A stretch of 64,000 nt of DNA from Alphaproteobacteria bacterium. Its GTDB lineage: Bacteria > Pseudomonadota > Alphaproteobacteria > UBA828. The translations under genes were made by a program, and so were the position numbers. Of the stretch, positions 20,612-37,377 are shown in pieces; position 1 is the stretch's first letter, and the number at the start of each line of letters is the position of its first letter. Where the stretch lies: NCBI GenBank assembly GCA_022826665.1, contig JAJDUK010000041.1, forward strand, positions 18,738-82,737. Reading direction: 5' to 3'. The notes under the pieces were generated by a model. That model had not been told where the DNA came from. It saw only the letters and a program-made list of their open reading frames with translations, and ran no database searches.

Positions 20612-21379
20612 GTGGCCAACATCCTGTGCGAGCGCGAGGACGACTGCCTGCGCATCCGCCTTAGCAGCGGTACCACCAACGCGCTGACGACGGCGGTTAT
20701 CCAAGACCTCGCGCAGGCGGTCGCGGACGCCAACCGCGACGCCCGCGGCGCCATGCTCTGCGGCGGCGAAAAATTCTTCTGCAACGGCCTGGACCTGGAC
20801 TGGGCGCTCGCGTGCTCGCGCGCCGAGATCAGCGAGATGTTTCACGCGCTGGCGGGGCTGATCCTCGCCATGCTGGAATCGCCGCTCCCCATCGTGGGCG
20901 CCATCAAGGGCCACGCCATCGGCGGCGGCATGGCCATCTATCTGGCCTGCGACTATCGCTACGCCGCCACGGGACGCGTGCTGATCGGCAAGCCCGAAAT
21001 CCTGCTGGGCGTGCCCAACCCCTATTACGGCGACCAACTCCTGCGCTTCGTTGCCGGCGATTTCGTCGCTTCCGACATGATCTACACCGGCAAGCTCGTC
21101 CGCGCCGACGAGGGCCGCGCCCTCAACCTCGTGCACGAAACCGGGCCCAAGGAAGACATCGAGAAGACGGCGTGGGGGCGCCTGCTGTTCCTGCGCGACC
21201 TCGCGCCGGAGGCCTTCGTGGAATCCAAGCGCATGAGGCTCGGCAAGTTCTGCGCCGACTTGCGGGAGCAGATGCCCACCCGCATCGCCCGCCAGGTCGA
21301 GATTTGGTCCGGCGACGAGGCGCAGGCTCGCCTCAGCGCCGGCGCCGAAAGGCTCAAGCGTCGGCGGCGCGAGGACTGA
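20612..21379 (+). CDS. Enoyl-CoA hydratase/isomerase (crotonase) family
   Basis: FFCNGLDL oxyanion loop, GHAIGGG, KPEILLG. GTG 20612 preferred because AGGAGAGG precedes it. Confidence 0.88.
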   Translation: MANILCEREDDCLRIRLSSGTTNALTTAVIQDLAQAVADANRDARGAMLCGGEKFFCNGLDLDWALACSRAEISEMFHALAGLILAMLESPLPIVGAIKGHAIGGGMAIYLACDYRYAATGRVLIGKPEILLGVPNPYYGDQLLRFVAGDFVASDMIYTGKLVRADEGRALNLVHETGPKEDIEKTAWGRLLFLRDLAPEAFVESKRMRLGKFCADLREQMPTRIARQVEIWSGDEAQARLSAGAERLKRRRRED

Positions 21380-21445
21380 TCGTCCGCACCTCTCACGGCA
21401 TTCGCGATCCGGTTCCGCGTCCCACGTCCGATAAACAATTTTCAT

Positions 21446-21605
21446 GCGGGACACGCCGGGATTAGGCGGGATGGGTGGGAAGTCACGGGGACAGGCGGGG
21501 ATGACGGCGGTGACTGGGGGCGGCGCGCTCTCACATGGCATAGCGCGATCCTGACGCGCTCGCCGCCCGCCTTGCATCGCACCATGGTCCGGGGAATCGC
21601 GGGGA
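21446..21605. repeat. Helically phased GGGA repeat array / G-quadruplex-like tract
   Basis: GGGA at 21448, 21458, 21468, 21477, 21488, 21498 and again at 21592 and 21602, in a non-coding gap between convergent genes. Confidence 0.6.
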
Positions 21606-21632
21606 CGCTCCGGCCCCGGCGGACAATCCGAG

Positions 21633-22733
21633 CTAACCGATCAGGCGTAGTTCGCGCGGGAACGACGTGAGCGAGCGCGCACCATCCTCGGTGATGGTCA
21701 CGTCGTCCTCGATGCGGACCCCGACATCGCCGGCGCCGTAGAGGCCGGGCTCGATGGTGATGACGAAGCCGGGCTCCAGCCGCTGGCGATTGCCGACCAT
21801 GACCTGCGGCGCCTCGTGCACGTCGAGCCCGAGGCCGTGGCCGGTCTTGTGCACGATCATGTCGGCGAAGGGCGAGGCGCGCAGCACGTCGGTCACGGCG
21901 GTATCCAGATCGTGCGCGGTGACGCCGGGTGCGGCCATGCGACGCCCCAGCGCGTTCGCCGCGCGCACGGTCTCGTAGACCTCCGCATGGCGGTCGTCCA
22001 CATGCTCGCAGAAGAAGGTGCGCGTGATGTCCGCGCTGAACCCGTCGATCTTCGCGCCGAAATCGATCAGCAGCGCATCGCCGGGCCTGAGCGGCGCATC
22101 GTCCGGCGTGCCGTGCGGGTTCGCCGCCTTCGCGCCCGCCAGCACGATGGGCTCGAAGCCGAACCCGTCCGAGCCATGCGCCAGCATCCGGGTCTTCAAC
22201 AGCGCGGCGATGGCCCGCTCGGTATCGCCGGCCCGGACCTCGTCGAGGGTTTCGCCCAGCGCGAGCTGGCTGATCTCGATGGCGCGGGAGAGGCTCGCGA
22301 TCTCGTCCTCGTCCTTGGCGATGCGAAGCGGCTGCAGCGCCGCGTCGGCATTCCGCACCTCGCCGTTCCCCATGTGCCGGCGCAGCGCATCGTACTCGAA
22401 CATGCGCATCCGCCCGCCTTCGACGCCGAGGGCCGCAGCCCCCAGCGCGCGCAGCGCGGCCTCGAAAGCGGCCTCGAAGCCGTCGCTGTCCTGCCAGTAG
22501 AAGGTCTCGGCGTCGGGGAAGGTGGTCGACCACTTGAGGCGCTCAAGCTCGGGCATGATGGCGAGCATCTGGGCCTTCCCGGTAACGAAGAGCAGCGTCG
22601 GGCGCTCCATCAGCGGGAAGTCGAGGCCAGTGAGGTATTGAAAGCTCGGCCCCGGCACGAAAGCGGCAGCATCCAGGCCCGCACCCCGGATCAGCGCGGC
22701 CGCGCGGTCGCGGCGCAGGTCGTGGCCCGTCAT
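21633..22733 (-). CDS. M24 family Xaa-Pro (di/amino)peptidase
   Basis: All five metal ligands visible: IDFGA, SADITRT, TGHGLG, TIEPG, RIEDD; creatinase-type N-domain. Confidence 0.93.
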   Translation of the reverse strand: MTGHDLRRDRAAALIRGAGLDAAAFVPGPSFQYLTGLDFPLMERPTLLFVTGKAQMLAIMPELERLKWSTTFPDAETFYWQDSDGFEAAFEAALRALGAAALGVEGGRMRMFEYDALRRHMGNGEVRNADAALQPLRIAKDEDEIASLSRAIEISQLALGETLDEVRAGDTERAIAALLKTRMLAHGSDGFGFEPIVLAGAKAANPHGTPDDAPLRPGDALLIDFGAKIDGFSADITRTFFCEHVDDRHAEVYETVRAANALGRRMAAPGVTAHDLDTAVTDVLRASPFADMIVHKTGHGLGLDVHEAPQVMVGNRQRLEPGFVITIEPGLYGAGDVGVRIEDDVTITEDGARSLTSFPRELRLIG

Positions 22734-23461
22734 AGCGCGCTGAGCCCCTGGCCGAAGCGCTCCAGCCGCATCTCCCCGCCGAAGCGGGGCTCTAGCGAGC
22801 GGACGATGATCGCCAAGTCCGCCAGAATCATGCGCTCGATCGCGCGGTCGCCCGCGGCAGCGTCCCCGGCGAGCACCGCGTCGACCAGCGCCTTCATGCG
22901 ACCGACCGAGGCGCGGCGCTCCTCGCTGGTCGCATTGGGATAGTAATGGAGCACCCGCATGCGCATACCGGCATCGATCACCTCATCGAAGAACTTGATC
23001 AGGAAGATATTGCGGGACAGCCCCGCCAGATGGCGAAGCGCCACCAGCTCGCTCTTGAGCGACGCCTCCCAGTCATCGTCCTCCACCGCCTGGACGAAGC
23101 GGTGCACGTGATCGTTCAACGGCGCCGCCTCGGCCCGGCCGGAGAGCGCCGCCGCCCGTGCCATGGCTCGGGAGATGATCAGCGCGGTATCCAGATAGTC
23201 GCCGGTGTTATCGAGCGAGAAGTGCGCCACGATGCTGGTCCGGTTCGGCAGGAACTGGACCAGCCGTTCGCCCGCGAGCAGGAGCAGGGCCTCCCGGATG
23301 GGTGTGCGCGAGACCTCGAAGCGGGCGGCTAGGGCGGTCTCGTCCAGAGCGGAGCCCGGCGCGATCCGCACCCAGAGGATTTCCTCGCGCAGCACGTCGT
23401 ACACCTGCAGAGCGCCGCGGCGCCCGCGCTTTCGGGGGCGTGCCTTGATTTCCGCTGCCAT
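22730..23461 (-). CDS. GntR family (FCD) transcriptional regulator
   Basis: wHTH LDETALAARFEVSRTPIREALLLL plus a C-terminal helical FCD-like domain; ATGA overlap with the peptidase. Confidence 0.92.
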   Translation of the reverse strand: MAAEIKARPRKRGRRGALQVYDVLREEILWVRIAPGSALDETALAARFEVSRTPIREALLLLAGERLVQFLPNRTSIVAHFSLDNTGDYLDTALIISRAMARAAALSGRAEAAPLNDHVHRFVQAVEDDDWEASLKSELVALRHLAGLSRNIFLIKFFDEVIDAGMRMRVLHYYPNATSEERRASVGRMKALVDAVLAGDAAAGDRAIERMILADLAIIVRSLEPRFGGEMRLERFGQGLSAL

Positions 23462-23501
23462 GCGCCGTGGCTCAGACTGCTAAAATTCTCGCCTTGAACG
23501 A

Positions 23502-23527
23502 TTGCATTATGTTTGCATAATAATATG
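23502..23527. promoter_or_regulatory. Candidate GntR operator in the divergent promoter region
   Basis: AT-rich TTGCATTATGTTTGCATAATAATATG with inverted repeat ATTATG-N4-CATAAT (23506-23521) and TTGCAT direct repeats 11 bp apart. Confidence 0.5.
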
Positions 23528-23588
23528 CTACGGGTGAGTCAAGGTGATAAACTACGTGTGGGTCAAGACGCAGAAGGGAGACATCGAC

Positions 23589-24587
23589 ATGACGCGATCC
23601 ATCACGCTGCTGCTTGGGGCCGTAGCCCTTGCCTTCGCCGTTGCACTGGCCACGCCGGCAATGGCGCAATCGAAGAGGGTCGCCTTCTTCGCCGCCTCTT
23701 CGCAGAACGGCTTCAACCAGGCGACGTACGAAGGTGTCGAGGAAATGGCCATCAAGCTCGGGTACGAGGCCGAGATCTATGACGGCAAGTTCGACGCCAT
23801 CCACCAGTACAGCCAGATCGAGGACGTGCTCGCCAGCGGCCGCTTCGAGGGCATGATTGTGGCGCCCAACGACCCCGTCGGCATCTCCGGCGCGTTCGAG
23901 CAGGTGATCGAGGCAGGCGTGCCGATCGCTACCGTGCTCTTCCCGATCGGGCCGGACCTCACCACCCTGGAGCCGCAGGTGCCCGGCATCACGTCGACCG
24001 TCGCATCGCCGCCCGTCGACGGCGCCACCTGGCAGGCCGAGGCCGCGGCGGCGTATTGCGCGGACAAGGACCCCTGCAACGTCATCATCATCATCGGCTT
24101 CAAGACCTTCCCCTTCGACAATCTGCGGCTTGAGACCTTCGAGAAGGTTCTGGCCCAGTACCCCAACATCAAGGTGGTGGGGGTTGGCGAGGGCTGGTAT
24201 TCGCCGGATACCTCGCTGAAGGCGATGCAGGACATGCTGCAGGCGGCGCGGGACGTGCACGTGGTGCTGTCGAATGCCGACCAGCACTTGGTAGGTGCGG
24301 AGATCGCGCTGGAGGCCGAGGGCTACAACGTGGCCGACCTCTACCTCATCGGCGGCGGTGCTGCGGCGATCTCGATCGAGGCGATCCGCGAAGGGCGCTG
24401 GGATGCCACCCTTGCCTACTTCCCCAAGACCATGGGGGCGCTCGCGATGGAGCAGATCGCCAACGCCATCGAGGGCAAGCCCGTGGACAACGCCATCAAC
24501 ATGGACGTCTCGGGTCCGCTCCAGGCCATGATCGACAAGGCCATTCTCGACGCCAACCCCGACTTCAGGGGCGAGTGGGAGCAGTAA
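23589..24587 (+). CDS. Sugar-type ABC periplasmic binding protein (RbsB fold)
   Basis: Signal peptide ending AMA; AASSQNGFNQ; QYSQIEDVLASG; RBS AAGGGAG. Confidence 0.9.
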   Translation: MTRSITLLLGAVALAFAVALATPAMAQSKRVAFFAASSQNGFNQATYEGVEEMAIKLGYEAEIYDGKFDAIHQYSQIEDVLASGRFEGMIVAPNDPVGISGAFEQVIEAGVPIATVLFPIGPDLTTLEPQVPGITSTVASPPVDGATWQAEAAAAYCADKDPCNVIIIIGFKTFPFDNLRLETFEKVLAQYPNIKVVGVGEGWYSPDTSLKAMQDMLQAARDVHVVLSNADQHLVGAEIALEAEGYNVADLYLIGGGAAAISIEAIREGRWDATLAYFPKTMGALAMEQIANAIEGKPVDNAINMDVSGPLQAMIDKAILDANPDFRGEWEQ

Positions 24588-24599
24588 CCGACGTTACCC

Positions 24600-24621
24600 G
24601 CCGGGGCCTTCGGGCCCCGGC
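24600..24621 (+). other. Stable cUUCGg stem-loop after the SBP gene
   Basis: GCCGGGGCC-TTCG-GGCCCCGGC; 9 bp stem, no U-tract. Confidence 0.65.
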
Positions 24622-24648
24622 GGTCGCTTGGCGCCGGGAGGTGGTAAT

Positions 24649-26676
24649 TTGACCCGTCACTACCGGGTGTCCGCCGATATCGGCGGCACGTTTACGGATA
24701 TCGTCTATCAGGACTGTTCAACCGGCGCCTGCGGCGCTGCGAAGGTTCTTTCCACACCGGACGACCCGGCGCTTGCGGTGCTCCGGGGCATCGAGGCGGC
24801 GATCCCGACCGAAGCCGCAATCGATTTCTTCGTCCACGGCACGACGGTTGGGCTCAACGCGCTGCTCACCCGGCGGGGCGCCAAGGTGGCGCTGCTCACC
24901 ACCGAGAACTTTCGGGACATCTACACGATCCAGGGCAACGACCGCGGCGAGATCTTCTCGATCCGCTGGAACAAACCCGAGCCGCTCACGCCGCTGGAGC
25001 ACACGTTCACGGCGCGGGAGCGGATCGCGGCCACCGGCGAGGCCGTGACGCCTCTGGAGACGAGCGATCTCGACCGCCTCGTCGCTGCGGTGAAGGAGGA
25101 GGGTTTCGAGGCGATCGCCATCGCCTTCCTCTTCTCCTTCAAGAACCCCGCGCATGAGCTGGAGGCCGCCGAGTACTTGCGCGCCCGCCTGCCCGACATT
25201 CCCATCGGGCTCTCGCACCGGGTCTCGCCCGAGTGGCGGGAGTTCGAGCGGACCTCGACCGCGGTGATGGACAGCTACCTCGCGCCGGTGGTGCGGGGTT
25301 ACCTGGAGACGCTGATCGGCGGCCTCGGCGACCGCCTGCCCGAGGGCCGGGGGCTGCACGTCATGCAGTCCAACGGCGGGGTGATGACCGCGGAATCCGC
25401 CAGCGAGACGCCGCTGCAGACGCTGCTCTCGGGCCCCGTCGGTGGCGCCATTGGCGGCAGGGCGCTCTCCGCTGCGACCGGCCGGCCCAATCTCATCTGC
25501 ATCGACATGGGCGGGACCTCCTTCGACGCCAGCCTGATCATCGACGGGCTGCCCTCCGGCTCCAACCACGCCAAACTGGAGGGGCTGCCGGTGCAGATGT
25601 CGGTGGTGGATATCCACGTCATCGGCGCCGGCGGCGGCTCCATCGCGTGGGAGGAGGCGGGCGCCATGCGTGTCGGCCCCCAATCCGCCGGCTCGATGCC
25701 GGGGCCGGCCTGCTACGGGCTGGGCGGGACCGAGCCCACGGTCTCCGACGCCAACTTGGTGCTCGGCCGGCTTGACGGCGCCAACTTCTCCGGCGGGGCG
25801 ATGGCGCTGGACCGGGGCGCGGCGGGCGCGGCGCTCACGACGGTCGGCGAGACGTTCGGGCTCACGACCGAGGCCATGGCGCAGGGCGTCGTGGATGTCG
25901 TGAACGCCAAGATGGCAGATGCGATCAGGACCATTACCGTCCAGCGCGGCATCGACCCACGCGACTTCTCCCTGGTCGCCTTCGGTGGCGCCGGCCCGGC
26001 ACAGGCGGGCGCGCTCGCCGAAGAGCTGCAGATTCGCGAGGTGATCGTGCCGGTGCACCCCGGCGCGTTCTCCGCCTGGGGCATGCTGCAGACGGACGTG
26101 CGCCGCGACTACAAGGAAACGCTCTATTCCTTCTGGGACCTCATGGACCTCGCGGTCCTCGAAGCCGCGTTCGCGGGTCTCGAGGAAAACGGCCGCCAAC
26201 ACCTGCTGGCTGAGGGGATCGCCGAGGACGCCATCGCCTTCGAGCGGGCCATCGACTTCCGCTACTACGGGCAGGAATATGTCCTCACCATCCCGGTGCC
26301 CAGCGGGACCATCGACATGGATGCCGTGCGCAAGAGCTTCGATGTGGCGTACGACCGGCAGTACGGCCACTCCAGCCCGGAGAACCGCGTCGAGATGGCG
26401 AACATCCGCCTAGCCGCGCTCGGCCGGCTGGCGCGACCGGCTTCCGCGCCGCCCGCGCGCGAGGCCGCACGGCCCACGCGCGAGCGGGATGTCATCTTCG
26501 CCGGCCGGCCGCTGAAGACACCCGTCCTCGACCGCAACGGGCTCGAAATCGGCAATGCCGTGGCGGGCCCTGCGATCATCGAGGAATCGACCGCGACGAC
26601 GCTGGTGCCGCCGGGCTGGAGCGCCACGGTGATCGAGGGCGGCCACCTCTCCATGACGAAGGAGGCGGGATCATGA
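24649..26676 (+). CDS. Hydantoinase A / 5-oxoprolinase ATP-binding subunit family
   Basis: ADIGGTFTD, HGTTVGLNALL, LLSGPVGG, IDMGGTSFD, GPQSAGSMPGPACYG, FGGAGP. TTG 24649 follows GGAGG. Confidence 0.93.
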   Translation: MTRHYRVSADIGGTFTDIVYQDCSTGACGAAKVLSTPDDPALAVLRGIEAAIPTEAAIDFFVHGTTVGLNALLTRRGAKVALLTTENFRDIYTIQGNDRGEIFSIRWNKPEPLTPLEHTFTARERIAATGEAVTPLETSDLDRLVAAVKEEGFEAIAIAFLFSFKNPAHELEAAEYLRARLPDIPIGLSHRVSPEWREFERTSTAVMDSYLAPVVRGYLETLIGGLGDRLPEGRGLHVMQSNGGVMTAESASETPLQTLLSGPVGGAIGGRALSAATGRPNLICIDMGGTSFDASLIIDGLPSGSNHAKLEGLPVQMSVVDIHVIGAGGGSIAWEEAGAMRVGPQSAGSMPGPACYGLGGTEPTVSDANLVLGRLDGANFSGGAMALDRGAAGAALTTVGETFGLTTEAMAQGVVDVVNAKMADAIRTITVQRGIDPRDFSLVAFGGAGPAQAGALAEELQIREVIVPVHPGAFSAWGMLQTDVRRDYKETLYSFWDLMDLAVLEAAFAGLEENGRQHLLAEGIAEDAIAFERAIDFRYYGQEYVLTIPVPSGTIDMDAVRKSFDVAYDRQYGHSSPENRVEMANIRLAALGRLARPASAPPAREAARPTRERDVIFAGRPLKTPVLDRNGLEIGNAVAGPAIIEESTATTLVPPGWSATVIEGGHLSMTKEAGS

Positions 26677-28394
26677 ACGATCCGATGCTGCGCAACATCG
26701 CAGACCCGGTCACGACCGAGATCGTGCGCAACTTCGTCGTCTCCTGCGCGGAGGACATGAACGCCTCGCTCTGGCGTTCCGCCCACTCGGCGGTGATTTA
26801 CGAGGGCCGGGACAGCGCCGTGGGGCTGCTCGACGCGGACGGCAACATGCTGGGCCAGTCGAGCGGCGTGCCGCTCTTCATCGGCGCCATCGATGCCAAC
26901 GTCCACCACGTGATGGAGTATTACGGCGAAGACATCGCCCCAGGCGATGTCTTCATCATGAACGACAGCTACATGCAGGGCTCGCACCTGCATGACGTGT
27001 CGGTGGTCGGGCCCATCTTCTTCGGCGGCGAGCTGATCGGCTTCGGCGCCGCGCGCGCGCACTGGAACGACATCGGTGCCATCGACCCCGGCACGGTCAT
27101 GGGCTCCACGAACATATACCAGGAGGGGCTGCGTCTCGGGCCCACCCGCATCGTCGCGCAGGGCAAGCCCATCCGCGAGTGGTTTGACCTGCTGCGGCTC
27201 AACACCCGCATGCCGGACACCAGCATCGGCGACCTGGACGCCCAGATCGCCGCCGTTCGCACCGGCGAGCGCAGGCTCTCACAGCTGCTCGACCGCATCG
27301 GCATCGAGACCTACCGGGCCGCCTGCGAAAACATCTTCGAGCAGGCACGGCGCATGGACCGCGAGGCGATCGCGGCGATCAAGGACGGCACCTGGTACCG
27401 GGAAGGTTTCTTGGACAGCGACGGCGCGGGCGACGACCCTGTGAAGGTCGCGCTGACGCTCACGGTCGAGGGTGAGGAGCTGATCGTCGACCTAGAAGGC
27501 TCCTCGGGCATCGTCCCCGGCTCGGTCAACTGCGGCGCGAGCCAGACCGTGTCCCTGCTCCGCCTCGCCTACAAGACGATGATCAACCCGGAGCGCGCCA
27601 TCACTGGCGGCTCGTTCGAGACGATGACCGTCCGCATCCCGGACGATTGCCTGTTCAACGCCAAGGAGCCTGCGGCCTGCGAATGGTACTTCACCGGCTT
27701 GGGCTTGCTCGCAGACCTCTTCATCTCCTGCCTCTCCGAAGCGATCCCCGAGCGCTCGACCGCCGCCCACTACGGGGATTCGATGGTGTCTCTCTTCTTC
27801 TCGGTCGACCGCAGGCGGGGCCAGTGGATGTCCATCGAGGCCACCGCCGGCGGCTGGGGCGGTCGCAACGACGGCGACGGCGAGAGCGCGCTGATCAATC
27901 TGGTGAACGGCAGCTTCCGCAACATCCCCGCCGAGGTGATGGAGACGAAGTTCCCCGTCCGGCTGGAGGAGTTCGCCATCCGCCCCGACTCCGGCGGACC
28001 GGGCCGGCACCGCGGCGGCTGCGGCGTCCTGCGCCGCTACAAGACGCTGGAGGATTGCTACTGCGCGCTCTGGTTCGAGCGCTCGCTCACGCCGGCCTGG
28101 GGGCTGAACGGGGGCAAAGACGCAAGGGGCCCGAAGGTCGAGATCACCCATCCCGACGGGTCGGCCGAAGGGCCGCTCAAGATGCGGGCGCGACCGGTCG
28201 CCGCCGGCACGGTGGTCGAGACCTGGACGGGCGGCGGCGGCGGCAACGGCGATCCCAGGGCGCGCCCGTTCGAGGAGGTGCAGCGCGACGTGCTTCGGGG
28301 TTACGTTTCTCCTGAAGGAGCCTGGAGGGACTATGGCGTCCGGATCACCTCGGACCTCGTCGTGGACGAAGAGGGATCGCAGCTGCGCGCCTGA
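26673..28394 (+). CDS. Hydantoinase B / oxoprolinase catalytic subunit family
   Basis: MNDSYMQGSHLHD, RAHWNDIG, IYQEGLRL, PAEVMETKFPV, DSGGPGRHRGG, GGGGGNGDP. Confidence 0.93.
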   Translation: MNDPMLRNIADPVTTEIVRNFVVSCAEDMNASLWRSAHSAVIYEGRDSAVGLLDADGNMLGQSSGVPLFIGAIDANVHHVMEYYGEDIAPGDVFIMNDSYMQGSHLHDVSVVGPIFFGGELIGFGAARAHWNDIGAIDPGTVMGSTNIYQEGLRLGPTRIVAQGKPIREWFDLLRLNTRMPDTSIGDLDAQIAAVRTGERRLSQLLDRIGIETYRAACENIFEQARRMDREAIAAIKDGTWYREGFLDSDGAGDDPVKVALTLTVEGEELIVDLEGSSGIVPGSVNCGASQTVSLLRLAYKTMINPERAITGGSFETMTVRIPDDCLFNAKEPAACEWYFTGLGLLADLFISCLSEAIPERSTAAHYGDSMVSLFFSVDRRRGQWMSIEATAGGWGGRNDGDGESALINLVNGSFRNIPAEVMETKFPVRLEEFAIRPDSGGPGRHRGGCGVLRRYKTLEDCYCALWFERSLTPAWGLNGGKDARGPKVEITHPDGSAEGPLKMRARPVAAGTVVETWTGGGGGNGDPRARPFEEVQRDVLRGYVSPEGAWRDYGVRITSDLVVDEEGSQLRA

Positions 28395-28402
28395 CCACGG
28401 TT

Positions 28403-29917
28403 ATGGCTGACGAGCCGGCGCTACGAGCCAACGGGATCGGCGTCGCCTTCGCAGGCGTCTGGGTCCTCAGCGACGTCTCGGTGGACATTCTGCCGGGCGA
28501 AATCCACGGGCTGATCGGCGAGAACGGTGCCGGCAAGTCGACGCTCGGCAAGGTCTTCGGCGGCTACTACGCCGCGAGCGCGGGCACGCTCGATGTCTTC
28601 GGCGAGCGGGCGAGCGCGTGGGACCCCCTCTCGGCGCTCTCCAAGGGCGTCGCGATCATGCACCAGGAGCTCCAGCTCGTGCCCGCGTTGACCGTGGCCG
28701 AGAACGTCTTCCTCGGCCTGGAGGACCAGCGCTGGGGCGTGTTGCGCCGGACCGAGGCGGAGCGCCTCTCCGACCTGATGGAAGCGAGCGGCTTTCAGCT
28801 CGACCCCAACGCCATCGTCTCCCGCCTCCCGATCGCCGACCAGCAGAAGATCGAGATCCTCCGGGCGCTCGCGCGCGAGGCGCGAATCATCGTGATGGAC
28901 GAACCCACGTCTTCTCTCTCGCGGGATGAAGTGACACAGCTTCACTCGGCGATGCGGGCGCTCAGGGACGAAGGACGCTCGATCATCTACGTCTCGCATT
29001 TTCTCCACGACATTCTCGAGGTCTCCGACCGGATCACCGTGCTGCGCGACGGCAAGCACGTGAAGACGGCGCCGGCCGCAGGCGAGACCCGGTCGAGCCT
29101 GGTGGCGGCAATGCTGGGCGGCGGCAAGAGCGAAACTCCGTTCCCGCCGAAGGTCCGCCCCGAGAATCCCGAGCCCGTGCTGGAAGTCGAGCACCTCGAG
29201 AGCGAGCGAGGCGCCAACGGCGCGAGCCTCTGGGTGGGGCGCGGGGAAATCGTGGGCCTCACCGGCCTTGTGGGCAGCGGCAGGAGCGAGATCGCCCGCG
29301 CGATCGTCGGCGCGGACCCGGCGACGGGCGGCGAGGTCCGGCTCCGGGGCGAGAGCTACCGCAAGCGCTCCATCCGGCGCTCCGCCGGGCTCGGCATGGT
29401 GATGTCGCCGGAGGACCGCCGCAAGCAGGGCCTGGTCATGACCATGCGTGTTTCCCCCAACATGACCTTGCCTCACCTCGGCCGCTTCACGCACCTCGGG
29501 GTCATGCGTCGCCGCGCCGAGCGCACGCGCACCCTGAGCCTGATCGAGCACTTCCGCGTGCGCCCGGCGGACCCCAACGGCAACGTCGCGACCTTCTCCG
29601 GCGGCAATCAGCAGAAGGTCCTGATCGGCAAGTGGCTCATGGAGAATCCCGACATCGTGATCCTCGACGAGCCAAGCCGCGGCGTGGACGTGGGCGCCCG
29701 TGAGCGAATTCACTTCGCGATCGCGGAGCTCGCGGCGAGCGGGACCGCCGTCCTGCTCATCTCCAGCGAAATCGAGGAGGTGCTGGGTCTCGCCCATCGC
29801 GCCTATCTGGCCGATGGCGGCCGCATCGTGGAAGAGGTGATCCCGGAGGAGTCCAGCGAAGCGGACCTTCTCGCGCTGCTCTTCCAGCACCAGAGCCAAC
29901 GGCGCGGGGCCGCGTGA
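28403..29917 (+). CDS. Sugar-type ABC ATP-binding protein (two NBDs)
   Basis: GENGAGKS, MDEPT, FSGGNQQK, LDEPSRGVDVG. Confidence 0.94.
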   Translation: MADEPALRANGIGVAFAGVWVLSDVSVDILPGEIHGLIGENGAGKSTLGKVFGGYYAASAGTLDVFGERASAWDPLSALSKGVAIMHQELQLVPALTVAENVFLGLEDQRWGVLRRTEAERLSDLMEASGFQLDPNAIVSRLPIADQQKIEILRALAREARIIVMDEPTSSLSRDEVTQLHSAMRALRDEGRSIIYVSHFLHDILEVSDRITVLRDGKHVKTAPAAGETRSSLVAAMLGGGKSETPFPPKVRPENPEPVLEVEHLESERGANGASLWVGRGEIVGLTGLVGSGRSEIARAIVGADPATGGEVRLRGESYRKRSIRRSAGLGMVMSPEDRRKQGLVMTMRVSPNMTLPHLGRFTHLGVMRRRAERTRTLSLIEHFRVRPADPNGNVATFSGGNQQKVLIGKWLMENPDIVILDEPSRGVDVGARERIHFAIAELAASGTAVLLISSEIEEVLGLAHRAYLADGGRIVEEVIPEESSEADLLALLFQHQSQRRGAA

Positions 29918-30855
29918 TGATCGGAAGCTTCCATATCGGTCGCTTCCTGCAGACCTACGCGGTCCTGATCATGATCGTGTTCCTGGTCATCGCGCTCAGC
30001 ATGCTGTCGGAGAACTTCCTGACGCCCCGCAACCTGCTGAACATACTCAACCAGAACGCGCCGCTCGCGATCATGGCCTCGGCGATGACGCTGGTGATCA
30101 TCGCAGGCGGGTTCGACCTCTCGGTGGCGGCGATCTTCTCCATGGGCTCGGTCATGTCGGCCTGGATCGCGCTCCATGTGGATCCCTATCTCGGTCTCTT
30201 CCTGGCGCCCTTCATCGGCCTCATCCTCGGCACCATGAACGGCGTGGTGATCAATGCGCTCCGGGTGCATTCCTTCCTCGCCACCATCGCCACGAGCCTG
30301 ATCTTCAAGGGCGTGGCCATCGTCATCTCCGACGGGCGGCTGATCTCCGTCCGCCTGGACACATTCACCTGGCTCGGGCGCGACAAGGCGGGCGGCGTCT
30401 TCATCGCCGTCTGGATCATGGCGGTCTTCGCCATAATCCTGACCTTCGCGCTAACCCGGACTGCCTTCGGGCGGCGGGTCTTCGCCGTCGGCGGCAACGA
30501 GGAGGCGGCGGTGCTCTCCGGCATCCGCACGGATCGCGTGAAGACCGCCACCTTCGCCATCGCGGGCTTCGCGGCAGGGCTCGCCTCGATCATCGCGACA
30601 TCCCGCGTGGCGCTGGGACAGGCGGCGGCCGGGCAGGGCATGGAGCTGCAGGCCATCGCCGCCGTGATCCTGGGCGGCACCAGCATCTACGGCGGCGCAG
30701 GCGCGGTGTGGCGCAGCCTCGGCGGCGTCTTCCTGCTGGCGCTCATCAGCAACGGCTTCAACATCCTGAACGCCGATCCCTTTTACCGTGACCTCACCAC
30801 CGGGCTGGTCATCCTCGCCGCAATCGGGATCAGCGCGGGCGGCCAACGGCGGTGA
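29914..30855 (+). CDS. Ribose-type ABC permease
   Basis: GGFDLSV, FAVGGNEEAAVLSG, ELQAIAAVILGGTSIYGG. Confidence 0.92.
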   Translation: MMIGSFHIGRFLQTYAVLIMIVFLVIALSMLSENFLTPRNLLNILNQNAPLAIMASAMTLVIIAGGFDLSVAAIFSMGSVMSAWIALHVDPYLGLFLAPFIGLILGTMNGVVINALRVHSFLATIATSLIFKGVAIVISDGRLISVRLDTFTWLGRDKAGGVFIAVWIMAVFAIILTFALTRTAFGRRVFAVGGNEEAAVLSGIRTDRVKTATFAIAGFAAGLASIIATSRVALGQAAAGQGMELQAIAAVILGGTSIYGGAGAVWRSLGGVFLLALISNGFNILNADPFYRDLTTGLVILAAIGISAGGQRR

Positions 30856-33800
30856 GCCGCGCCTGCCGGCAGTCACAGCGTCTCTCCGACATTCGGGCGG
30901 CAATGCGCGCCGCCATCCTCGAAGACGAGGTCCCGGCGGTGCGCCGCATGGTGGAGGCCGCGGCGCTCACGCGGGCGGACCGGGAGTCCATCTCCGTGCG
31001 GGCGGCCGATCTGGTCCGCACCGTGCGGGCGGGCGGCAGCGCCTCGATCATGCAGGGCTTCCTCGCCGAATACGGGCTCTCCTCCCGAGAGGGTGTAGCG
31101 CTCATGTGCCTCGCCGAGGCGCTGCTGCGCGTGCCCGACACCGAGACCATCGATGCGCTGATCGAGGACAAGATCGCGGCGTCTGACTGGGCGGCGCACC
31201 TGGGGCAGTCGAGCTCGCCGCTGGTCAATGCCTCCACCTGGGCGCTGCTGCTCACCGGCAAAGTGCTGGGCGATACGGAGGAGGGCCTCGCCGGGGCGCT
31301 GCACGGCGCGGTCAAGCGGCTCGGCGAGCCGGTCATCCGCGCGGCGGTCGCCCAGGCGATGCGCGAGCTCGGGCACCAGTTCGTGCTCGGGCGCGACATG
31401 GGCGAGGCCATGGCCCGTGCCGCCGAGCTGGAGGCGCAGGGCTACAGCTTCTCATACGACATGCTGGGCGAGGCGGCCCGCACCGAGGCGGATGCCCGCC
31501 GCTACCACCTCGCCTATTCCGATTCCATCACCGCGCTTGCGGATGTCGGCCGGGGCGCACCCATCCGCGACCGGCCAGGGGTTTCGGTCAAGCTCTCGGC
31601 CCTGCACCCGCGCTATGAGTTTGCGCAGCGTGACCGGGTGCTGACGGAGGTCACAGCCCGCCTTGGTGCGCTGGCATTGCTCGCCAAATCCGCTGGCATC
31701 GGTCTCAACGTGGATGCCGAGGAAGCGGACCGCCTCGACCTCTCCCTCGATGTCATCGAGGCGGTGCTCGCCGATCCCGCGCTCGCAGGGTGGGATGGCT
31801 TCGGCGTCGTGGTCCAGGCCTACGGCAAGCGGGCGGCGCACGTCATCGATTGGGTCCATGCGCTCGCCGAGGCGCACGGGCGCCGCATGATGGTGCGGCT
31901 GGTCAAGGGCGCCTACTGGGACACGGAGATCAAGCGCGCCCAGATGCAGGGCATCGCCAGCTTCCCGGTGTTCACCCGCAAGGCGAGCACCGATGTCGCC
32001 TACCTTGCGTGCGCGCGGAAGCTGCTCGGGATGACGGACCGCCTCTATCCACAGTTCGCGACCCACAACGCACACACGGTGGCGGCGGTGCTGCACATGG
32101 CGGGCGACGGAACGGACTTCGAGTTCCAGCGCCTGCACGGCATGGGCGAGGCCCTGCACGCGGCGGTGCGCGCGGCGCACGGGCTCCGCTGCCGCATCTA
32201 CGCGCCGGTGGGCGCGCATCACGACCTGCTCGCCTATCTCGTCCGCCGCCTGCTGGAGAACGGCGCCAACAGCTCCTTCGTGAACCAGATCGTGGACGAA
32301 GGCGTGACGGCGGAGGAGATCGCGCGCGATCCCATCGCGGAGGTGGAAGGGCCCGGCACAGAAGTCGCAAACCCGGCCATCGCGGCACCCCCCGACATCT
32401 TCATGCCCGCCCGCCGCAATGCGAAGGGGTGGGACCTCACCGATCCGCTCACCGTGGCCGAGATCGAGGCCGCGCGCCAGCCCTTCCGTACCGAGGTTTG
32501 GGAAGCCGGGCCGATGATCGCCGGTGACGCCGTTGGCGCCGGGCGTGCGGCGGTACGGAACCCGGCGCGGCCGGACGAGATCTTAGGCACCGTGACCGAC
32601 GCTGCGCCAGAGGACATCGAAGCAGCGCTGGAGGCGGCGCGAGACGGGGCGGTGGCGTGGGTGGCGCTAAGCGGCGAGGAACGCGCAAGCCGGCTCTGTC
32701 GCGTGGCCGATCTCTACGAGGGGCACGCGGCGGAACTCTTTGCCCTCGCCGCACGCGAGGCCGGCAAGACCTTGCCAGACTGCGTGGCGGAGGTGCGCGA
32801 GGCCTGCGACTTTGCGCGCTTCTACGCGGGCGAGGCTCTGAGCTTGCACCGCGAGCGCCGATGCACTCCCCGCGGCGTGGTCGCCTGCATCTCGCCCTGG
32901 AACTTCCCGCTCGCCATCTTCTCGGGCCAGATACTCGGGGCGCTCGCCGCAGGCAACGCGGTGATTGCCAAGCCGGCCGAACAGACGATGCTGATTGCGG
33001 CGCGCGCGGTCGCGCTGATGCACGAGGCGGGCATCCCGCGCGACACCTTGCAGCTATTGCCGGGCGACGGCGCCTCGGTGGGCGCGGCACTTGTCGCCGA
33101 TCCCCGCATCGACGGCGTGTGCTTCACCGGCTCGACCGAGACTGCCCGGCTCATCAACCGTGCGATGGCCGACAACCTCGCGCCCGAGGCACCGCTGATC
33201 GCGGAGACCGGCGGCCTCAACGCGATGATCGTCGATTCCACTGCGCTACCCGAGCAGGCGGTGCGCGATATCGTCGCCTCAGCCTTCCAGAGTGCCGGCC
33301 AACGTTGCTCGGCGCTGCGCATCCTCTACATCCAGCGCGAGGTCGAGGAGCGGATTCTGGAGATGCTGTTCGGCGCCATGGACGCGCTCCGCATCGGCGA
33401 CCCGTGGGACCTTGCCGCCGACATCGGCCCGGTGATCGACGGCGAGGCTCAGTCCCGCATCGAGGCGCACTGCGCGCGGGCCGAACAGGAGAGGCGCGTG
33501 CTCAAGCGGCTCGCTGCTCCGGACCGGGGTCGCTTCGTACCGCCGACGGTGCTGCGCGTCCAAGGGATCGAAGCGCTCGAAGAGGAAGTATTCGGGCCAG
33601 TGCTGCATGTCGCCACGTTTGGGGCCGACCAGATCGACGCCGTGGTCGATGCCGTCAACCGGGCCGGCTACGGCCTCACCTTCGGCCTGCACACCCGCAT
33701 CGATGACCGCGTGCAGCACGTCGTCGATCGCGTGCGCGCGGGCAATATCTACGTCAATCGCAACCAGATCGGCGCGGTGGTGGGCTCGCAGCCCTTCGGC

Positions 33801-34442
33801 GGCGAGGGCCTGAGCGGCACCGGACCCAAGGCCGGTGGCCCCCACTACGTGCCGCGCCTCACGGCGGGTGCCGCCCCCGCCGGGGGCCGGCCCTCGGGCG
33901 CGGTGATCAACGAGGCATTGCTCGCCACCGCCATCGCCGACGCCGGGCGCGCGCTCGCAGCCAGGGCGCATCGCGGGGACGGCGGCCGCTTCGCGCCGCT
34001 GGACCTCCCCGGCCCAACCGGCGAATCCAACCGGCTCTCGTTCGCGCCGCGCGGCGTGGTGCTCTGCCTCGGCCCCGGCGCCGACGCGGTCCGCGCGCAG
34101 GTCGCAGCAGCCCGCGACGCGGGCAACGCTGTGGTGGCGGTCGCCGACGGCGCGAGCGCGGCGCTCACCGGTCACGCCATCGATCCGTGCGTGGTCGTGC
34201 TCGACGGCCAGGTCGTGCCAGGGGCACTCACTACCCTGTCGGGCATCGCCGCTGTCGCCTGCGCCGCGGATCGCGACGTGCTCGCCGCGATGCGCACCGC
34301 GCTCGCACGGCGCCCCGGCCTCATCCTGCCGCTGATCGCGGAGGCGTCAGCGCCCGAGCGCTACGTGCTGGAGCGCCACCTCTGTGTCGACACCACGGCG
34401 GCCGGTGGCAACGCGTCGCTGCTCGCCGAGGCCGGCGGGTAA
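30852..34442 (+). CDS. putA: Bifunctional proline dehydrogenase / P5C dehydrogenase (no N-terminal RHH; C-terminal ALDH-like extension)
   Basis: SYDMLGE, RLVKGAYWD, ATHN, RRLLENGANSSF; ALDH motifs ETGGLN, SAGQRCSA, QPFGGEGLSGTGPKAGG; terminal DTTAAGGNASL. Confidence 0.96.
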   Translation: MSRACRQSQRLSDIRAAMRAAILEDEVPAVRRMVEAAALTRADRESISVRAADLVRTVRAGGSASIMQGFLAEYGLSSREGVALMCLAEALLRVPDTETIDALIEDKIAASDWAAHLGQSSSPLVNASTWALLLTGKVLGDTEEGLAGALHGAVKRLGEPVIRAAVAQAMRELGHQFVLGRDMGEAMARAAELEAQGYSFSYDMLGEAARTEADARRYHLAYSDSITALADVGRGAPIRDRPGVSVKLSALHPRYEFAQRDRVLTEVTARLGALALLAKSAGIGLNVDAEEADRLDLSLDVIEAVLADPALAGWDGFGVVVQAYGKRAAHVIDWVHALAEAHGRRMMVRLVKGAYWDTEIKRAQMQGIASFPVFTRKASTDVAYLACARKLLGMTDRLYPQFATHNAHTVAAVLHMAGDGTDFEFQRLHGMGEALHAAVRAAHGLRCRIYAPVGAHHDLLAYLVRRLLENGANSSFVNQIVDEGVTAEEIARDPIAEVEGPGTEVANPAIAAPPDIFMPARRNAKGWDLTDPLTVAEIEAARQPFRTEVWEAGPMIAGDAVGAGRAAVRNPARPDEILGTVTDAAPEDIEAALEAARDGAVAWVALSGEERASRLCRVADLYEGHAAELFALAAREAGKTLPDCVAEVREACDFARFYAGEALSLHRERRCTPRGVVACISPWNFPLAIFSGQILGALAAGNAVIAKPAEQTMLIAARAVALMHEAGIPRDTLQLLPGDGASVGAALVADPRIDGVCFTGSTETARLINRAMADNLAPEAPLIAETGGLNAMIVDSTALPEQAVRDIVASAFQSAGQRCSALRILYIQREVEERILEMLFGAMDALRIGDPWDLAADIGPVIDGEAQSRIEAHCARAEQERRVLKRLAAPDRGRFVPPTVLRVQGIEALEEEVFGPVLHVATFGADQIDAVVDAVNRAGYGLTFGLHTRIDDRVQHVVDRVRAGNIYVNRNQIGAVVGSQPFGGEGLSGTGPKAGGPHYVPRLTAGAAPAGGRPSGAVINEALLATAIADAGRALAARAHRGDGGRFAPLDLPGPTGESNRLSFAPRGVVLCLGPGADAVRAQVAAARDAGNAVVAVADGASAALTGHAIDPCVVVLDGQVVPGALTTLSGIAAVACAADRDVLAAMRTALARRPGLILPLIAEASAPERYVLERHLCVDTTAAGGNASLLAEAGG

Positions 34443-34526
34443 CCGGTCGTCCTCACGCGGGTAATGCTCTGCGCGGCATGGGCCGCGATGGCGTAAGCTG
34501 CACCCGACGACTCACGGAGGATCGGC

Positions 34527-36623: not shown

Positions 36624-36627
36624 CCGA

Positions 36628-37377
36628 TCACCGCCTACGCGCGGCAACTAGGAACTCGGTGTTGCCGTCGCGGCCCTTGATCGGGCTTTCGACCAGACCC
36701 AGCACCGGCCAGCATTCGGCCGTGAGCCAGTCCCGGATCGTTTCGCAGACTTCTGCGTGAACCGCGGGGTCGCGGACGATACCGCCCTTGCCGACGCGCC
36801 CGCGCCCCGCCTCAAACTGCGGCTTGATCAGGGCGACGAGGCGCGCGCCGGCGGCCGCGAGTGCAAGCGGCGCCGGCAGGATCGTGCGCAGGCCGATGAA
36901 GCTCGCGTCGCAGACGATGAGGTCGACCGGCTCCGGCACCTGCTCCCGCGTGAGGTAGCGCGCGTTCGTCCGCTCCAGCACCGTGACGCGGGGCTCGCCG
37001 CGTAGGCGTGCGTCAAGCTGGCCGTAGCCAACATCGACCGCGTAGACTCGCCGCGCGCCGCGCTGACAGAGCACATCGGTGAAGCCCCCGGTGGAGGCCC
37101 CGATATCCAGCGCGATCAGCCCGCTCGGGTCGATCCCGAAATGCGTGAGCGCGTGATCCAGCTTGATGCCGCCGCGCGAGACCCAAGGGTGGTCCGCGCC
37201 CCTGACCGTAAGCGCAAGTTCGCGGTCGACCTGCATGCCGGGCTTCTCGAGCCGGCGCTCGCCGGAATACACCCGGCCCGCCAACAGCAGCGCCTGCGCC
37301 TTGGCCCTGGTCTCGGCGAGCCCGCGGGCGACCAGCAGGGTGTCGAGCCTCTCCTTGCCGGGCAGTCGGCGGCTCAG
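36628..37377 (-). CDS. tlyA: TlyA family rRNA 2'-O-methyltransferase (S4 + FtsJ domains)
   Basis: The frame continues upstream of the listed ORF as KERLDTLLVARGLAETRAKAQALLLAG; WVSRGGIKL, DIGASTGGFTD, VDVGYGQL, LIKPQFE. Probable CTG start. Confidence 0.93.
   Translation of the reverse strand: MSRRLPGKERLDTLLVARGLAETRAKAQALLLAGRVYSGERRLEKPGMQVDRELALTVRGADHPWVSRGGIKLDHALTHFGIDPSGLIALDIGASTGGFTDVLCQRGARRVYAVDVGYGQLDARLRGEPRVTVLERTNARYLTREQVPEPVDLIVCDASFIGLRTILPAPLALAAAGARLVALIKPQFEAGRGRVGKGGIVRDPAVHAEVCETIRDWLTAECWPVLGLVESPIKGRDGNTEFLVAARRR

Follow-up and report, generated by a model that had tools for sequence, protein, structure and literature searches.

Organization of the locus

The window, the entire 64,000-nucleotide stretch of alphaproteobacterial DNA analyzed here, contains two divergent gene arms, the genes of which were called by Pfam and NCBIfam profile searches. 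The minus strand encodes a 366-residue, prolidase/PepQ-like M24B metallopeptidase (21633–22733; Peptidase_M24, 2.9e-58, with Creatinase_N) and a GntR/FCD transcriptional regulator (22730–23461; GntR and FCD domains); the stop codon of the regulator gene overlaps the M24 start codon in an ATGA that is read directly in the sequence. The plus strand arm begins with a CUT2 (ribose-type) periplasmic binding protein (23589–24587; Peripla_BP_4, 1.4e-41), the reading frame of which is open from 23544 and likely starts at ATG 23589, with the ribosome binding site AAGGGAGA just 5′. It is followed by HyuA, the ATP-binding subunit of a hydantoinase/oxoprolinase-family lactamase (24628–26676; Hydant_A_N, Hydantoinase_A and Hydant_A_C), and by the catalytic subunit HyuB (26673–28394; Hydantoinase_B), the gene for which overlaps hyuA by 4 nt. 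Progressing further, a CUT2-type ABC ATPase with two fused nucleotide-binding domains (28403–29917; two ABC_tran matches) and an RbsC-like CUT2-type permease (29914–30855; BPD_transp_2; 4-nt overlaps at both ends) lead into the bifunctional proline dehydrogenase/P5C dehydrogenase PutA (30852–34442; NCBIfam NF008869), the GTG start of which overlaps the permease stop. An OYE/TMADH-like Fe-S flavoenzyme (34527–36623, plus strand; Oxidored_FMN and Pyr_redox_2) lies 85 nt 3′ of putA. The gene order and content described in the initial annotation, with the regulator and peptidase genes divergent from the binding protein, hyuA, hyuB, ATPase and permease genes, were borne out, and all nine genes are real.

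The operator-like repeat noticed earlier between the two arms is likewise real. Phylogenetic footprinting delimited a 20-bp candidate operator, TTGCATTATGTTTGCATAAT, at 23502–23521 (no strand assigned), which is conserved in 66/66 extractable homologous divergent intergenic regions, the remainder of which is unalignable. The consensus, TTGCATwAwGTTTGCATAAT, is built of two TTGCATwAw repeats with an inner palindrome, ATTATG-N4-CATAAT, and the element is doubled in some of these regions. It occurs once in the 4.6-Mb genome of the organism at ≤2 mismatches, while a reversed control gave 0 matches. The element overlaps the −10 of a promoter-like site at 23494–23521 (plus strand), the sole sigma-70-like site in the 16.5 kb between 21000 and 37500. 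The regulator combines the HTH and FCD domains of the FadR subfamily with a divergent gene and a conserved candidate operator in the shared intergenic region, as expected of a local repressor, and would act as such here. Taken together, these features support a coherent, regulated unit.

Predicted activities of the lactamase, peptidase and importer

HyuA and HyuB carry the complete domain set of the hydantoinase/oxoprolinase HyuA/HyuB family at near full profile coverage (Hydant_A_N, 2.9e-46; Hydantoinase_A, 9.6e-88; Hydant_A_C, 4.5e-14; Hydantoinase_B, 1.7e-155). Among structures in the PDB, HyuA is most similar to N-methylhydantoinase (2e-124) and caprolactamase (1.6e-115). The scores against the caprolactamase CapAB equivalog models NF050156 and NF050157 were 496.9 (CapA) and 269.6 (CapB), below the cut-off of 1000 bits for each subunit, which places HyuAB in the same superfamily as CapAB, but as a different enzyme. 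HyuB has orthologues of 74–99% identity in 80 loci and is one of ~50 paralogues in its own genome, where three of the five M24 homologues adjoin HyuAB paralogues. The orthologous group has no characterized member and its nearest solved or curated relatives fall far below equivalog cut-offs, which counts against the imino acid-yielding route favored below.

The M24 enzyme possesses the Creatinase_N and Peptidase_M24 fold together with all five dinuclear-metal ligands, D224, D235, H299 (in HKTGHGLGLDVHEAP), E328 and E342, as read from motifs rather than from a structural alignment. In the PDB it is closest to Xaa-Pro dipeptidases and aminopeptidases P (6e-54), with creatinase at 2.5e-14. The PepQ equivalog models were not reached (183.8 versus a cut-off of 630 for NF040821, and 37.9 versus 339 for NF010133), so that by sequence the enzyme is assigned to the M24B clade and not to PepQ. 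Its earlier designation as a prolidase type is upheld at the level of a predicted activity.

The transporter has the build of a CUT2 system, namely a Peripla_BP_4 binding protein, a fused double-NBD ATPase of ~500 residues and a BPD_transp_2 permease. It is not an equivalog of the ribose, arabinose, xylose, galactofuranose, AI-2 or allose transporters in NCBIfam: the binding protein is far below every sugar-binding protein cut-off (best 64 bits versus 337, RbsB), the ATPase is closest to AraG (460 versus 689) and the permease to a ribose ABC transporter permease (224 versus 398). The binding protein has 556 homologues at E ≤ 1e-40, and its PDB relatives are distant only, ribose-binding proteins at ~1e-19. 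An importer predicted to be of the monosaccharide type rather than the peptide type counts against a proline-yielding cyclic amide, and the transporter class would instead suit a lactam conjugated to a sugar or polyol, namely an N-substituted 5-oxoproline of the opine or Amadori kind similar to agropinic acid, entering by true sugar-type import and opened by HyuAB. The agropinic acid genes agaF and agaG of octopine Ti plasmids are HyuAB homologues, which also favors such a substrate. We consider it very improbable: the conserved unit neither contains nor adjoins sugar-catabolic genes, the binding protein is far from any sugar-specific equivalog, and the prolidase and the proline/hydroxyproline genes described below would be left unexplained.

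The permease–putA junction

The GTGA overlap between the permease stop and the putA start, at 30852–30855, is exact as initially annotated and is strictly kept in 13/13 loci examined within the genus. No in-frame start other than ATG 30903 is available; between the GTG and this codon, the 13 loci display zero indels and coding-type substitutions (for instance, tcc↔agc for Ser), and the GTG is thus the putA start. A sequence scan between the permease gene and putA detected no terminator-like or promoter-like site. Metatranscriptome mapping gave coverage along the whole locus, with the junction crossed by one contig only, a coral metatranscriptome contig covering 30790–31046 that derives from a related strain and for which DNA carry-over is possible. 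A single junction contig from a related strain does not prove co-transcription of the permease gene and putA, which we infer.

PutA scored 1431.3 bits against NF008869 (cut-off 747), with PRODH and ALDH domains in one chain, and is a long form in which the C-terminal domain is present. It is not of the trifunctional type (NF008772, 1325 bits versus a cut-off of 1750, with the match beginning at profile position 88); the RHH domain is absent, and the protein therefore cannot autoregulate as enterobacterial PutA does. It is encoded by the only putA of the genome rather than by a dedicated paralogue. This sole copy could be a housekeeping gene that landed here by chance, a point against a proline pathway, as is the finding that close relatives have retained the operon but lost putA, their genomes being entirely devoid of it. 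In the PutA tree, the genus groups with Paracoccaceae PutAs and not with the short PutAs of its own family, and putA here looks horizontally acquired.

The flavoenzyme gene follows putA in L013–L016 and L022, as a neighbor only in a subclade of the genus. It is missing after putA in L018, L019 and L023–L025, where the genes identified are housekeeping genes (L024, L025) and a Dpp-type ABC ATPase gene (L019). We took the flavoenzyme to be a possible N-methylproline demethylase of the StcD/HpbA type; its 57% homologues on Sinorhizobium meliloti pSymA are unnamed genes in an uninformative context. It is not an established part of the system.

Conservation and recurrent linkage to proline genes

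The unit M24B peptidase–GntR, divergent from CUT2 binding protein–HyuA–HyuB–ATPase–permease, is conserved across ~80 loci of marine Alphaproteobacteria, with the core present in most of them. Carriers are Paracoccaceae, Rhizobiaceae (Hoeflea), Nitratireductor, and sponge, coral and other marine MAGs; cultured carriers are Hoeflea alexandrii DSM 16655, H. poritis E7-10, Maritimibacter harenae DP07 and Nitratireductor sp. XY-223. The regulator gene is divergent from the transport/HyuAB arm in most loci. The M24 gene is found in 54/77 homologous loci, and its absence from the other 23 counts against a pathway that would depend on it. A small GAF-like gene, absent in the genus of the window, often lies 3′ of the unit; a representative had no Pfam match, and a search of the window's own genome, run without a positive control, returned no match. 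Within the genus, the block from the M24 gene to putA is constant and the flanks vary on both sides. Megablast of the locus against plasmids gave short matches only, and a Paroceanicella plasmid match was rejected as the same locus on account of its paralogous HyuAB and different context.

Unrelated genes and no proline or hydroxyproline gene follow the permease gene in 55/77 evaluable loci. The initial annotation rightly described such loci as normally lacking putA, and on this distribution putA does not belong to the ancestral unit. Linkage of putA in homologous clusters, on which the earlier proposal had been made to depend, gave a divided answer: it is lacking in these 55 loci, while in a combined HyuA and HyuB tree four separated clades carry a proline- or hydroxyproline-specific gene directly after the permease gene. 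Two of these have putA, the genus of the window and the Boseongicola/Silicimonas clade, in the latter at a separation of 300–440 nt. The other two have Pro_racemase-family genes: two genes (one Cys/Cys, one Ser/Thr; gaps of 11–22 nt) in Hoeflea poritis and Nitratireductor, and one gene after a 7-nt gap in the clade of L092 and L167. Parsimony on the HyuAB tree requires 6 changes. In the PutA tree, support for grouping the genus with the Boseongicola clade is weak (85), and in the HyuAB tree strongly supported branches set the two apart. Two separate junction events, rather than a single origin with co-transfer, are the simpler reading, with one event and recombination as the alternative.

In another Paracoccaceae genome (G011), putA lies 115 nt 3′ of a paralogous Dpp-type HyuAB operon that encodes, in order, an SBP_bac_5-type peptide importer, a GAF-like protein, HyuA, HyuB, a hydantoin-type racemase and a second HyuB. 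Among 30 sampled Paracoccaceae putA loci, none has HyuA, HyuB or a CUT2 permease within 1.5 kb of putA. Given the linkage in four clades, the G011 operon and this 0/30 background, the proline link is probably functional, and comparative genomics independently suggests proline or hydroxyproline as the end product.

The many loci devoid of a proline gene fit a different account, in which the hydantoin or lactam broken down by the cassette has nothing to do with proline and the putA adjacency is a lineage-specific accident of rearrangement or co-transfer. The leading candidate substrate is N-methylhydantoin derived from host creatinine, which HyuAB would convert to N-carbamoylsarcosine for a creatinase-like M24 enzyme to free sarcosine. 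The bacterium lives in symbiosis with a sponge, and N-methylhydantoinase genes serving creatinine utilization have been reported from sponge microbiomes (PMC6742649). In the PDB, the closest match to HyuA bears the label N-methylhydantoinase, and creatinase belongs to the M24 family. Two clades carry a linked DMGDH/sarcosine-dehydrogenase-like gene that might indicate sarcosine instead of proline: in Roseicyclus it lies in the M24 arm, 36 nt beyond the GAF-like gene, and in the Boseongicola clade it is an adjacent gene. We nevertheless judge this account unlikely. The similarity of HyuA to N-methylhydantoinase is no better than that to caprolactamase, and prolidases match the M24 enzyme 40 orders of magnitude better than creatinase, which presumably lacks the five metal ligands retained here. 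General domain scans found neither a creatinine/cytosine deaminase nor an N-carbamoylsarcosine amidase among the scanned locus genes or the scanned neighbors in relatives. Chance adjacency also sits poorly with putA or Pro_racemase genes directly after the permease gene in four independent clades and with the G011 operon.

A proposed route from a cyclic amide to an imino acid

We favor, at a probability of about 0.55, a catabolic divergon under GntR repression, the substrate of which is a small cyclic amide that yields an imino acid, proline or hydroxyproline. As first proposed, the route was one from a cyclic amide to proline; the coherent locus, the co-oriented and overlapping putA and the proline/hydroxyproline genes in four clades sustain it, and the non-ancestral position of putA does not. 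Onto the gene set, its conservation, the candidate operator, the conserved junction and the recurrent linkage, all directly observed, a mechanism can be drawn in which every biochemical step is predicted. The CUT2-type ABC system would import the cyclic amide, and HyuAB would open its secondary lactam bond at the expense of ATP. The linear product would possess an Xaa-Pro-type acyl-N(imino acid) bond that resists ordinary peptidases and would be cleaved by the prolidase-like M24B enzyme. In the genus of the window, PutA would then oxidize the freed proline to glutamate; joined to the operon end by the 4-nt overlap, putA would share the operator-controlled promoter of the other genes.

Known HyuAB substrates, 5-oxoproline, caprolactam, valerolactam and 1-methylhydantoin, are each opened at an N-H lactam or imide bond. 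Opening the only N-H lactam bond of cyclo(Xaa-Pro/Hyp) gives exactly Xaa-Pro, and a diketopiperazine would thus be the most economical guess at the substrate. The oxoprolinase family membership of HyuAB accommodates a variant with pGlu-Pro or pGlu-Hyp as substrate, opened by HyuAB acting as a 5-oxoprolinase to Glu-Pro, split by M24 and completed by PutA; the prolidase/PutA logic is retained and both halves end as glutamate. We hold this variant to be improbable, as an anionic, peptide-like substrate makes a CUT2 sugar-type importer even less expected, and nothing tells pGlu-Pro or pGlu-Hyp apart from a diketopiperazine.

Returning to the cyclic dipeptide, it is possible, at well below even odds, that the cassette constitutes the first genetically defined catabolic pathway for proline/hydroxyproline 2,5-diketopiperazines, with HyuAB as an ATP-dependent “diketopiperazinase” and a dedicated prolidase cleaving Xaa-Pro, by which marine host-associated Alphaproteobacteria harvest collagen-derived or microbial cyclic dipeptides. 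Diketopiperazines abound as microbial and host metabolites and signaling molecules, in sponges and corals above all. No ATP-dependent ring-opening diketopiperazine pathway emerged from literature searches, which also gave nothing directly relevant on HyuAB with prolidase or on hydantoinases in sponge symbionts; a 2013 study still described diketopiperazine-degrading enzymes and genes as unknown (PMC3852281). If true, the proposal would give a widespread orthologous group its function and account in part for the massive expansion of HyuAB among sponge symbionts, currently lumped in metagenome studies as “N-methylhydantoinase/creatinine degradation”. It would further imply recruitment of a sugar-type ABC importer for a peptide-derived ring compound, and proline oxidation wired directly into the operon of a sponge-symbiont genus. 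The repeated independent docking of putA and proline racemase genes to the same operon is useful even with another substrate.

Comparison with known systems

The M24 enzyme shares with the prolidase PepQ of Pyrococcus (PDB 1pv9, 1wy2 and 1wn1), its best sequence matches (6e-54 to 3e-48), a two-domain build of ~360 residues and the five metal ligands. In contrast to PepQ, the cut-off for which it misses (184 versus 630), it has a gene controlled by a predicted repressor of its own and located next to those of a lactamase, so that its role is presumably specialized and not one of housekeeping.

The hyuABCE genes of Pseudomonas sp. NS671 reportedly encode an ATP-dependent hydantoinase, a carbamoylase and a hydantoin racemase. 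Both systems pair HyuA/HyuB with a second, amino acid-releasing hydrolase, which is M24B prolidase-like here rather than of the M20/carbamoylase type. An Asp/Glu/hydantoin racemase gene recurs in the G011 paralogous operon beside putA and is absent from the present locus, which instead comes with an ABC importer of its own, a GntR regulator and the PutA link.

CapAB of Pseudomonas jessenii (PDB 6yra; PMC8453981, PMC6061476), OplAB and N-methylhydantoinase (PDB 7hk5) possess the same two-subunit HyuA/HyuB organization with the full Pfam domain set, encoded by adjacent overlapping genes in a substrate-inducible catabolic operon, and ATP-driven lactam opening is presumed to be common to all. The present HyuAB is only distantly similar to them, is set between the CUT2 binding protein and ATPase genes, and occurs together with an M24B enzyme of the prolidase type, to which four clades add proline/hydroxyproline genes.

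In the proline betaine pathway of Paracoccus denitrificans and Rhodobacter sphaeroides, HpbD, HpbB/C and HpbA act before PutA (PMC3950512). There, as proposed here, a specialized upstream route leads to L-proline and a single PutA serves as the entry to central metabolism. The putA of that pathway is unlinked and is induced secondarily by the proline made, whereas the present putA is fused to the upstream operon; the chemistry there is demethylation, and here it would be ring opening and peptidolysis.

Organization and regulation of the locus

The source genome spans 4.6 Mb in 106 contigs, and its nearest relatives are metagenome-assembled Alphaproteobacteria from sponge and other marine settings. 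ORF calling with Pfam and NCBIfam searches confirmed the genes and families that the initial annotation had placed at 21633–34442. The minus strand encodes an M24 peptidase (21633–22733) and a GntR/FCD regulator (22730–23461), the regulator stop overlapping the peptidase start as ATGA. The plus strand encodes a Peripla_BP_4 binding protein (23589–24587; likely start ATG 23589, preceded by AAGGGAGA), HyuA (24628–26676), HyuB (26673–28394), a double-domain ABC ATPase (28403–29917), a BPD_transp_2 permease (29914–30855) and a long, bifunctional PutA (30852–34442), with junctions from hyuA through putA of −4, +8, −4 and −4 nt. PutA scores above the NCBIfam PutA cut-off (1431 vs 747), and the NCBIfam comparison found no RHH DNA-binding domain in it. 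An OYE/TMADH-like Fe-S flavoenzyme gene (34527–36623, plus strand) with its own GGAGG ribosome-binding site lies 85 nt 3′ of putA, a position kept only in one subclade of the genus; S. meliloti pSymA carries homologues (57% identity) to which no names are assigned. Its enzyme class includes the N-methylproline demethylases StcD/HpbA, and with that activity it would be a further proline-producing neighbor.

As had been noted, the stop codon of the permease gene overlaps the GTG of putA in the sequence GTGA at 30852. The sole alternative start in frame is an ATG, 51 nt further on. Across 13 loci of the genus, cggcGGTGAg is unvarying at the junction, and the next 47 nt hold no indels and show coding-type changes, for example silent exchanges between Ser codons. 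In Pfam, the PRODH N-terminal match begins at residue 12. By these three features, GTG 30852 is the putA start. The only sigma-70-like site within 21000–37500 lies at 23494–23521, and the same scan returned no terminator-like site from the binding protein gene through the end of putA. The predicted −10 element overlaps the 20-mer TTGCATTATGTTTGCATAAT (23502–23521), an operator-like repeat already noted between the two arms. It is the sole conserved element in the intergenic region between the GntR and binding protein genes, present in 66 of 66 loci from which that region could be extracted, in some as two copies. With up to two mismatches allowed, it occurs exactly once in the genome, which argues that the GntR regulator is local and dedicated. 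Metatranscriptome contigs from sponge and coral cover the locus; a single coral contig (92% identical) spans the permease/putA junction, offering weak RNA support for co-transcription.

Conservation of the cassette

A homologue scan with one genome per species retrieved 80 loci with HyuB orthologues at 74–99% identity, from Paracoccaceae/Roseobacteraceae, Rhizobiaceae (several Hoeflea), Nitratireductor, two gammaproteobacterial metagenome-assembled genomes (MAGs) and the genus itself. Carriers available in culture include Hoeflea alexandrii DSM 16655, H. poritis E7-10, Hoeflea sp. AS60, Maritimibacter harenae DP07, Nitratireductor sp. XY-223, Nioella and Yoonia. By tblastn synteny, the arm from binding protein through HyuA, HyuB and ATPase to permease is essentially invariant, with GntR mostly divergent from it. 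Of 77 evaluable loci, 54 contain the M24 gene, and 55 have unrelated genes after the permease, consistent with the initial view of putA as an unusual member; putA thus lies outside the ancestral unit.

In 38 of 77 loci, including most of those outside the genus, M24 is followed by a small GAF-like gene (c7; ~165 aa, weak Pfam GAF matches; for example L064:4509-5012 (-) and L132:17916-18419 (-)); a genome search found no homologue in the window's genome. A homologue 38% identical lies 5′ of HyuA in a paralogous Dpp-type operon. The c7 gene looks like a recurrent HyuAB partner, conceivably a ligand sensor, subunit or chaperone.

Recurrent coupling to proline and hydroxyproline genes

In a tree of HyuA plus HyuB, loci with putA next to the permease fall into two clades, that of the genus and one of Boseongicola/Silicimonas, with strongly supported branches between them; in the second clade, ~300–440 nt lie between permease and putA. 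Hoeflea poritis and Nitratireductor sp. XY-223 have two Pro_racemase-family genes after the permease, at gaps of 11–22 nt, one with a Cys/Cys catalytic pair (MCGH, DRSPCGTG) and the other with a Ser/Thr pair (MSGS, DRSPTGT). In another clade, made up of L092 and the nearly identical L167, one Pro_racemase gene lies 7 nt after the permease. With these labels, parsimony on the 80-row tree requires four gains and two losses, six changes in all. The chance of a Pro/Hyp-specific gene next after a given operon is, by a rough estimate, ~0.2%, and to see this four times independently in a few dozen independent neighborhoods would go far beyond it.

A paralogous operon in the Paracoccaceae genome G011, which also carries homologous locus L029, has the genome's single putA 115 nt downstream. 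This operon (L132:7954-19254, L134:218-5250) encodes, in order, an XRE/cupin regulator, SBP_bac_5 of a peptide-type importer, two permeases, two oligo_HPY ATPases, a GAF-like gene (38% identical to c7), HyuA, HyuB, an Asp/Glu/hydantoin racemase and a second HyuB. For comparison, 30 putA loci were drawn from 151 Paracoccaceae genomes; no gene for HyuA, HyuB or a CUT2 permease lay within 1.5 kb of any of them. Within the genus, putA is fused to the permease in all 12 putA-bearing genomes with uninterrupted upstream sequence in the locus. The flanks of the M24-to-putA block vary: crotonase or other genes upstream, and the OYE-like flavoenzyme, ApaG/GTP cyclohydrolase/TrkH or transketolase downstream. 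Because of the recurrent Pro/Hyp clades, the G011 operon, the background count and the genus-wide fusion, the linkage of putA to the cassette is probably meaningful.

An orthologue of the G011 operon in the window's genome (contigs C90/C64; binding protein 68%, racemase 70–73% identical) lies away from putA. In Roseicyclus (G012:C2, locus L064), the single putA shares the strand of the cassette and lies ~17 kb further downstream, near but not adjacent.

Origin and loss of putA

The window's putA is the only copy in its genome, and putA is likewise single in all other putA-linked genomes checked. Two close relatives that retain the operon (L017 in G008, L020 in G009) lack putA genome-wide; in L017 the OYE-like gene directly follows the permease, as if putA had been cleanly deleted. 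Absence of putA also from G020, G027, G028, G030 and G032 of the genus suggests that proline oxidation is dispensable in part of this symbiont group. PutA of the genus (1196 aa, long form; loci L116–L131) groups with Paracoccaceae PutAs at 100% support. Other genera of the family and order have short PutAs (~1000–1060 aa, 50–57% identity), unlinked and of ~1050 aa in the family's other genera, and on these grounds horizontal acquisition of the genus putA is probable. It is likewise likely for the cassette, which has its closest HyuAB relatives in Paracoccaceae and gammaproteobacterial MAGs. The two putA junctions may reflect either separate origins or a single origin with later recombination.

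One close relative carries a locus apparently disrupted by insertions (L014 5617-17142; L115 / G022:C1:1249227-1255023), with ~2.3 kb between hyuA and hyuB and putA split near residues 250–268 by ~2 kb; small unrelated ORFs lie between the pieces.

Affinities of the enzymes and binding protein

HyuA and HyuB have complete domain sets and are distant relatives of N-methylhydantoinase (2e-124) and caprolactamase (1.6e-115), falling far under the equivalog cut-offs of the latter. For the M24 protein, the best matches are Xaa-Pro dipeptidases and aminopeptidases P from archaea and bacteria (6e-54 to 1e-48); the match to creatinase is much weaker (2.5e-14). These prolidase-type matches, together with retention of all five metal ligands, identify it by homology as a metallo-M24B enzyme, although its 184 bits fall short of the PepQ equivalog cut-off of 630. 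The binding protein, which has at least 556 homologues (E ≤ 1e-40), resembles ribose-binding proteins only remotely, and "sugar-type" here denotes a fold class, not a ligand. The transporter class is the one point in agreement with an opine-like, sugar-conjugated pyroglutamate as substrate, which we consider highly improbable.

The hydantoinase/oxoprolinase family expansion in the window's genome is extraordinary: in 4.6 Mb there are 51 matches to HyuB (48 when tblastn with ≥50% coverage is used) and 37 to HyuA, the family members being 23–36% identical to the window copy (26673–28394; for example on contigs C57, C70, C74, C92 and C100). Many of these paralogues adjoin Opp/Dpp-type or other ABC ATPases, and three of the five M24 homologues lie beside HyuAB pairs (C34, C65, C58).

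Two clades have a DMGDH/sarcosine-dehydrogenase-like neighbor, an FAD oxidoreductase with a GcvT domain. In Roseicyclus, this gene (L064:1939-4473 (-)) belongs to the M24 arm, 36 nt past c7. In the Boseongicola clade (L059:447-4447 (+)), the same gene and an MttB-family methyltransferase gene are convergent with the M24 arm, and a DHDPS-family gene follows putA. Such neighbors may connect the cassette with N-methyl amino acids or betaines. The DMGDH-like linkage and the sponge setting (PMC6742649) would also suit N-methylhydantoin from host creatinine as substrate, with M24 acting on N-carbamoylsarcosine; this reading leaves the four Pro/Hyp linkages and the prolidase-type metal center of M24 unexplained, and we regard it as unlikely. 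The DMGDH-like and MttB-like genes near the Boseongicola loci could equally form a second proline-producing route, from proline betaine through N-methylproline to proline (compare PMC3950512), which would make that neighborhood a proline hub.

A proposed route from cyclic amides to proline

Taken together, we infer a general mechanism converting a cyclic amide to proline or hydroxyproline (probability roughly 0.55), with a diketopiperazine as a tentative candidate for the substrate. To our knowledge, the known HyuAB substrates (5-oxoproline, capro- and valerolactam, 1-methylhydantoin) are all opened at an N–H lactam or imide bond. A diketopiperazine of the type cyclo(Xaa-Pro) would offer exactly one such lactam bond, Pro-C(=O)-NH-Xaa, as the HyuAB target, and its six-membered, uncharged, hydrogen-bonding ring could plausibly fit a binding protein of the pyranose type. 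Expression would be derepressed when the GntR repressor leaves its operator. Ring opening would yield Xaa-Pro, an imide-bonded dipeptide requiring a prolidase, and in the genus the freed proline would be oxidized by PutA from the same transcript. Production of Xaa-Pro would explain why a prolidase-type enzyme is the cassette's most frequent partner, and its breakdown why Pro/Hyp catabolic genes repeatedly dock onto it. A pyroglutamyl-Pro or pyroglutamyl-Hyp dipeptide would follow the same logic with a different ring, and seems to us improbable as the substrate. Literature searches returned no description of this HyuAB group, its CUT2 importer, its prolidase partner or the repeated Pro/Hyp coupling; ATP-dependent lactamase operons as such are already known.
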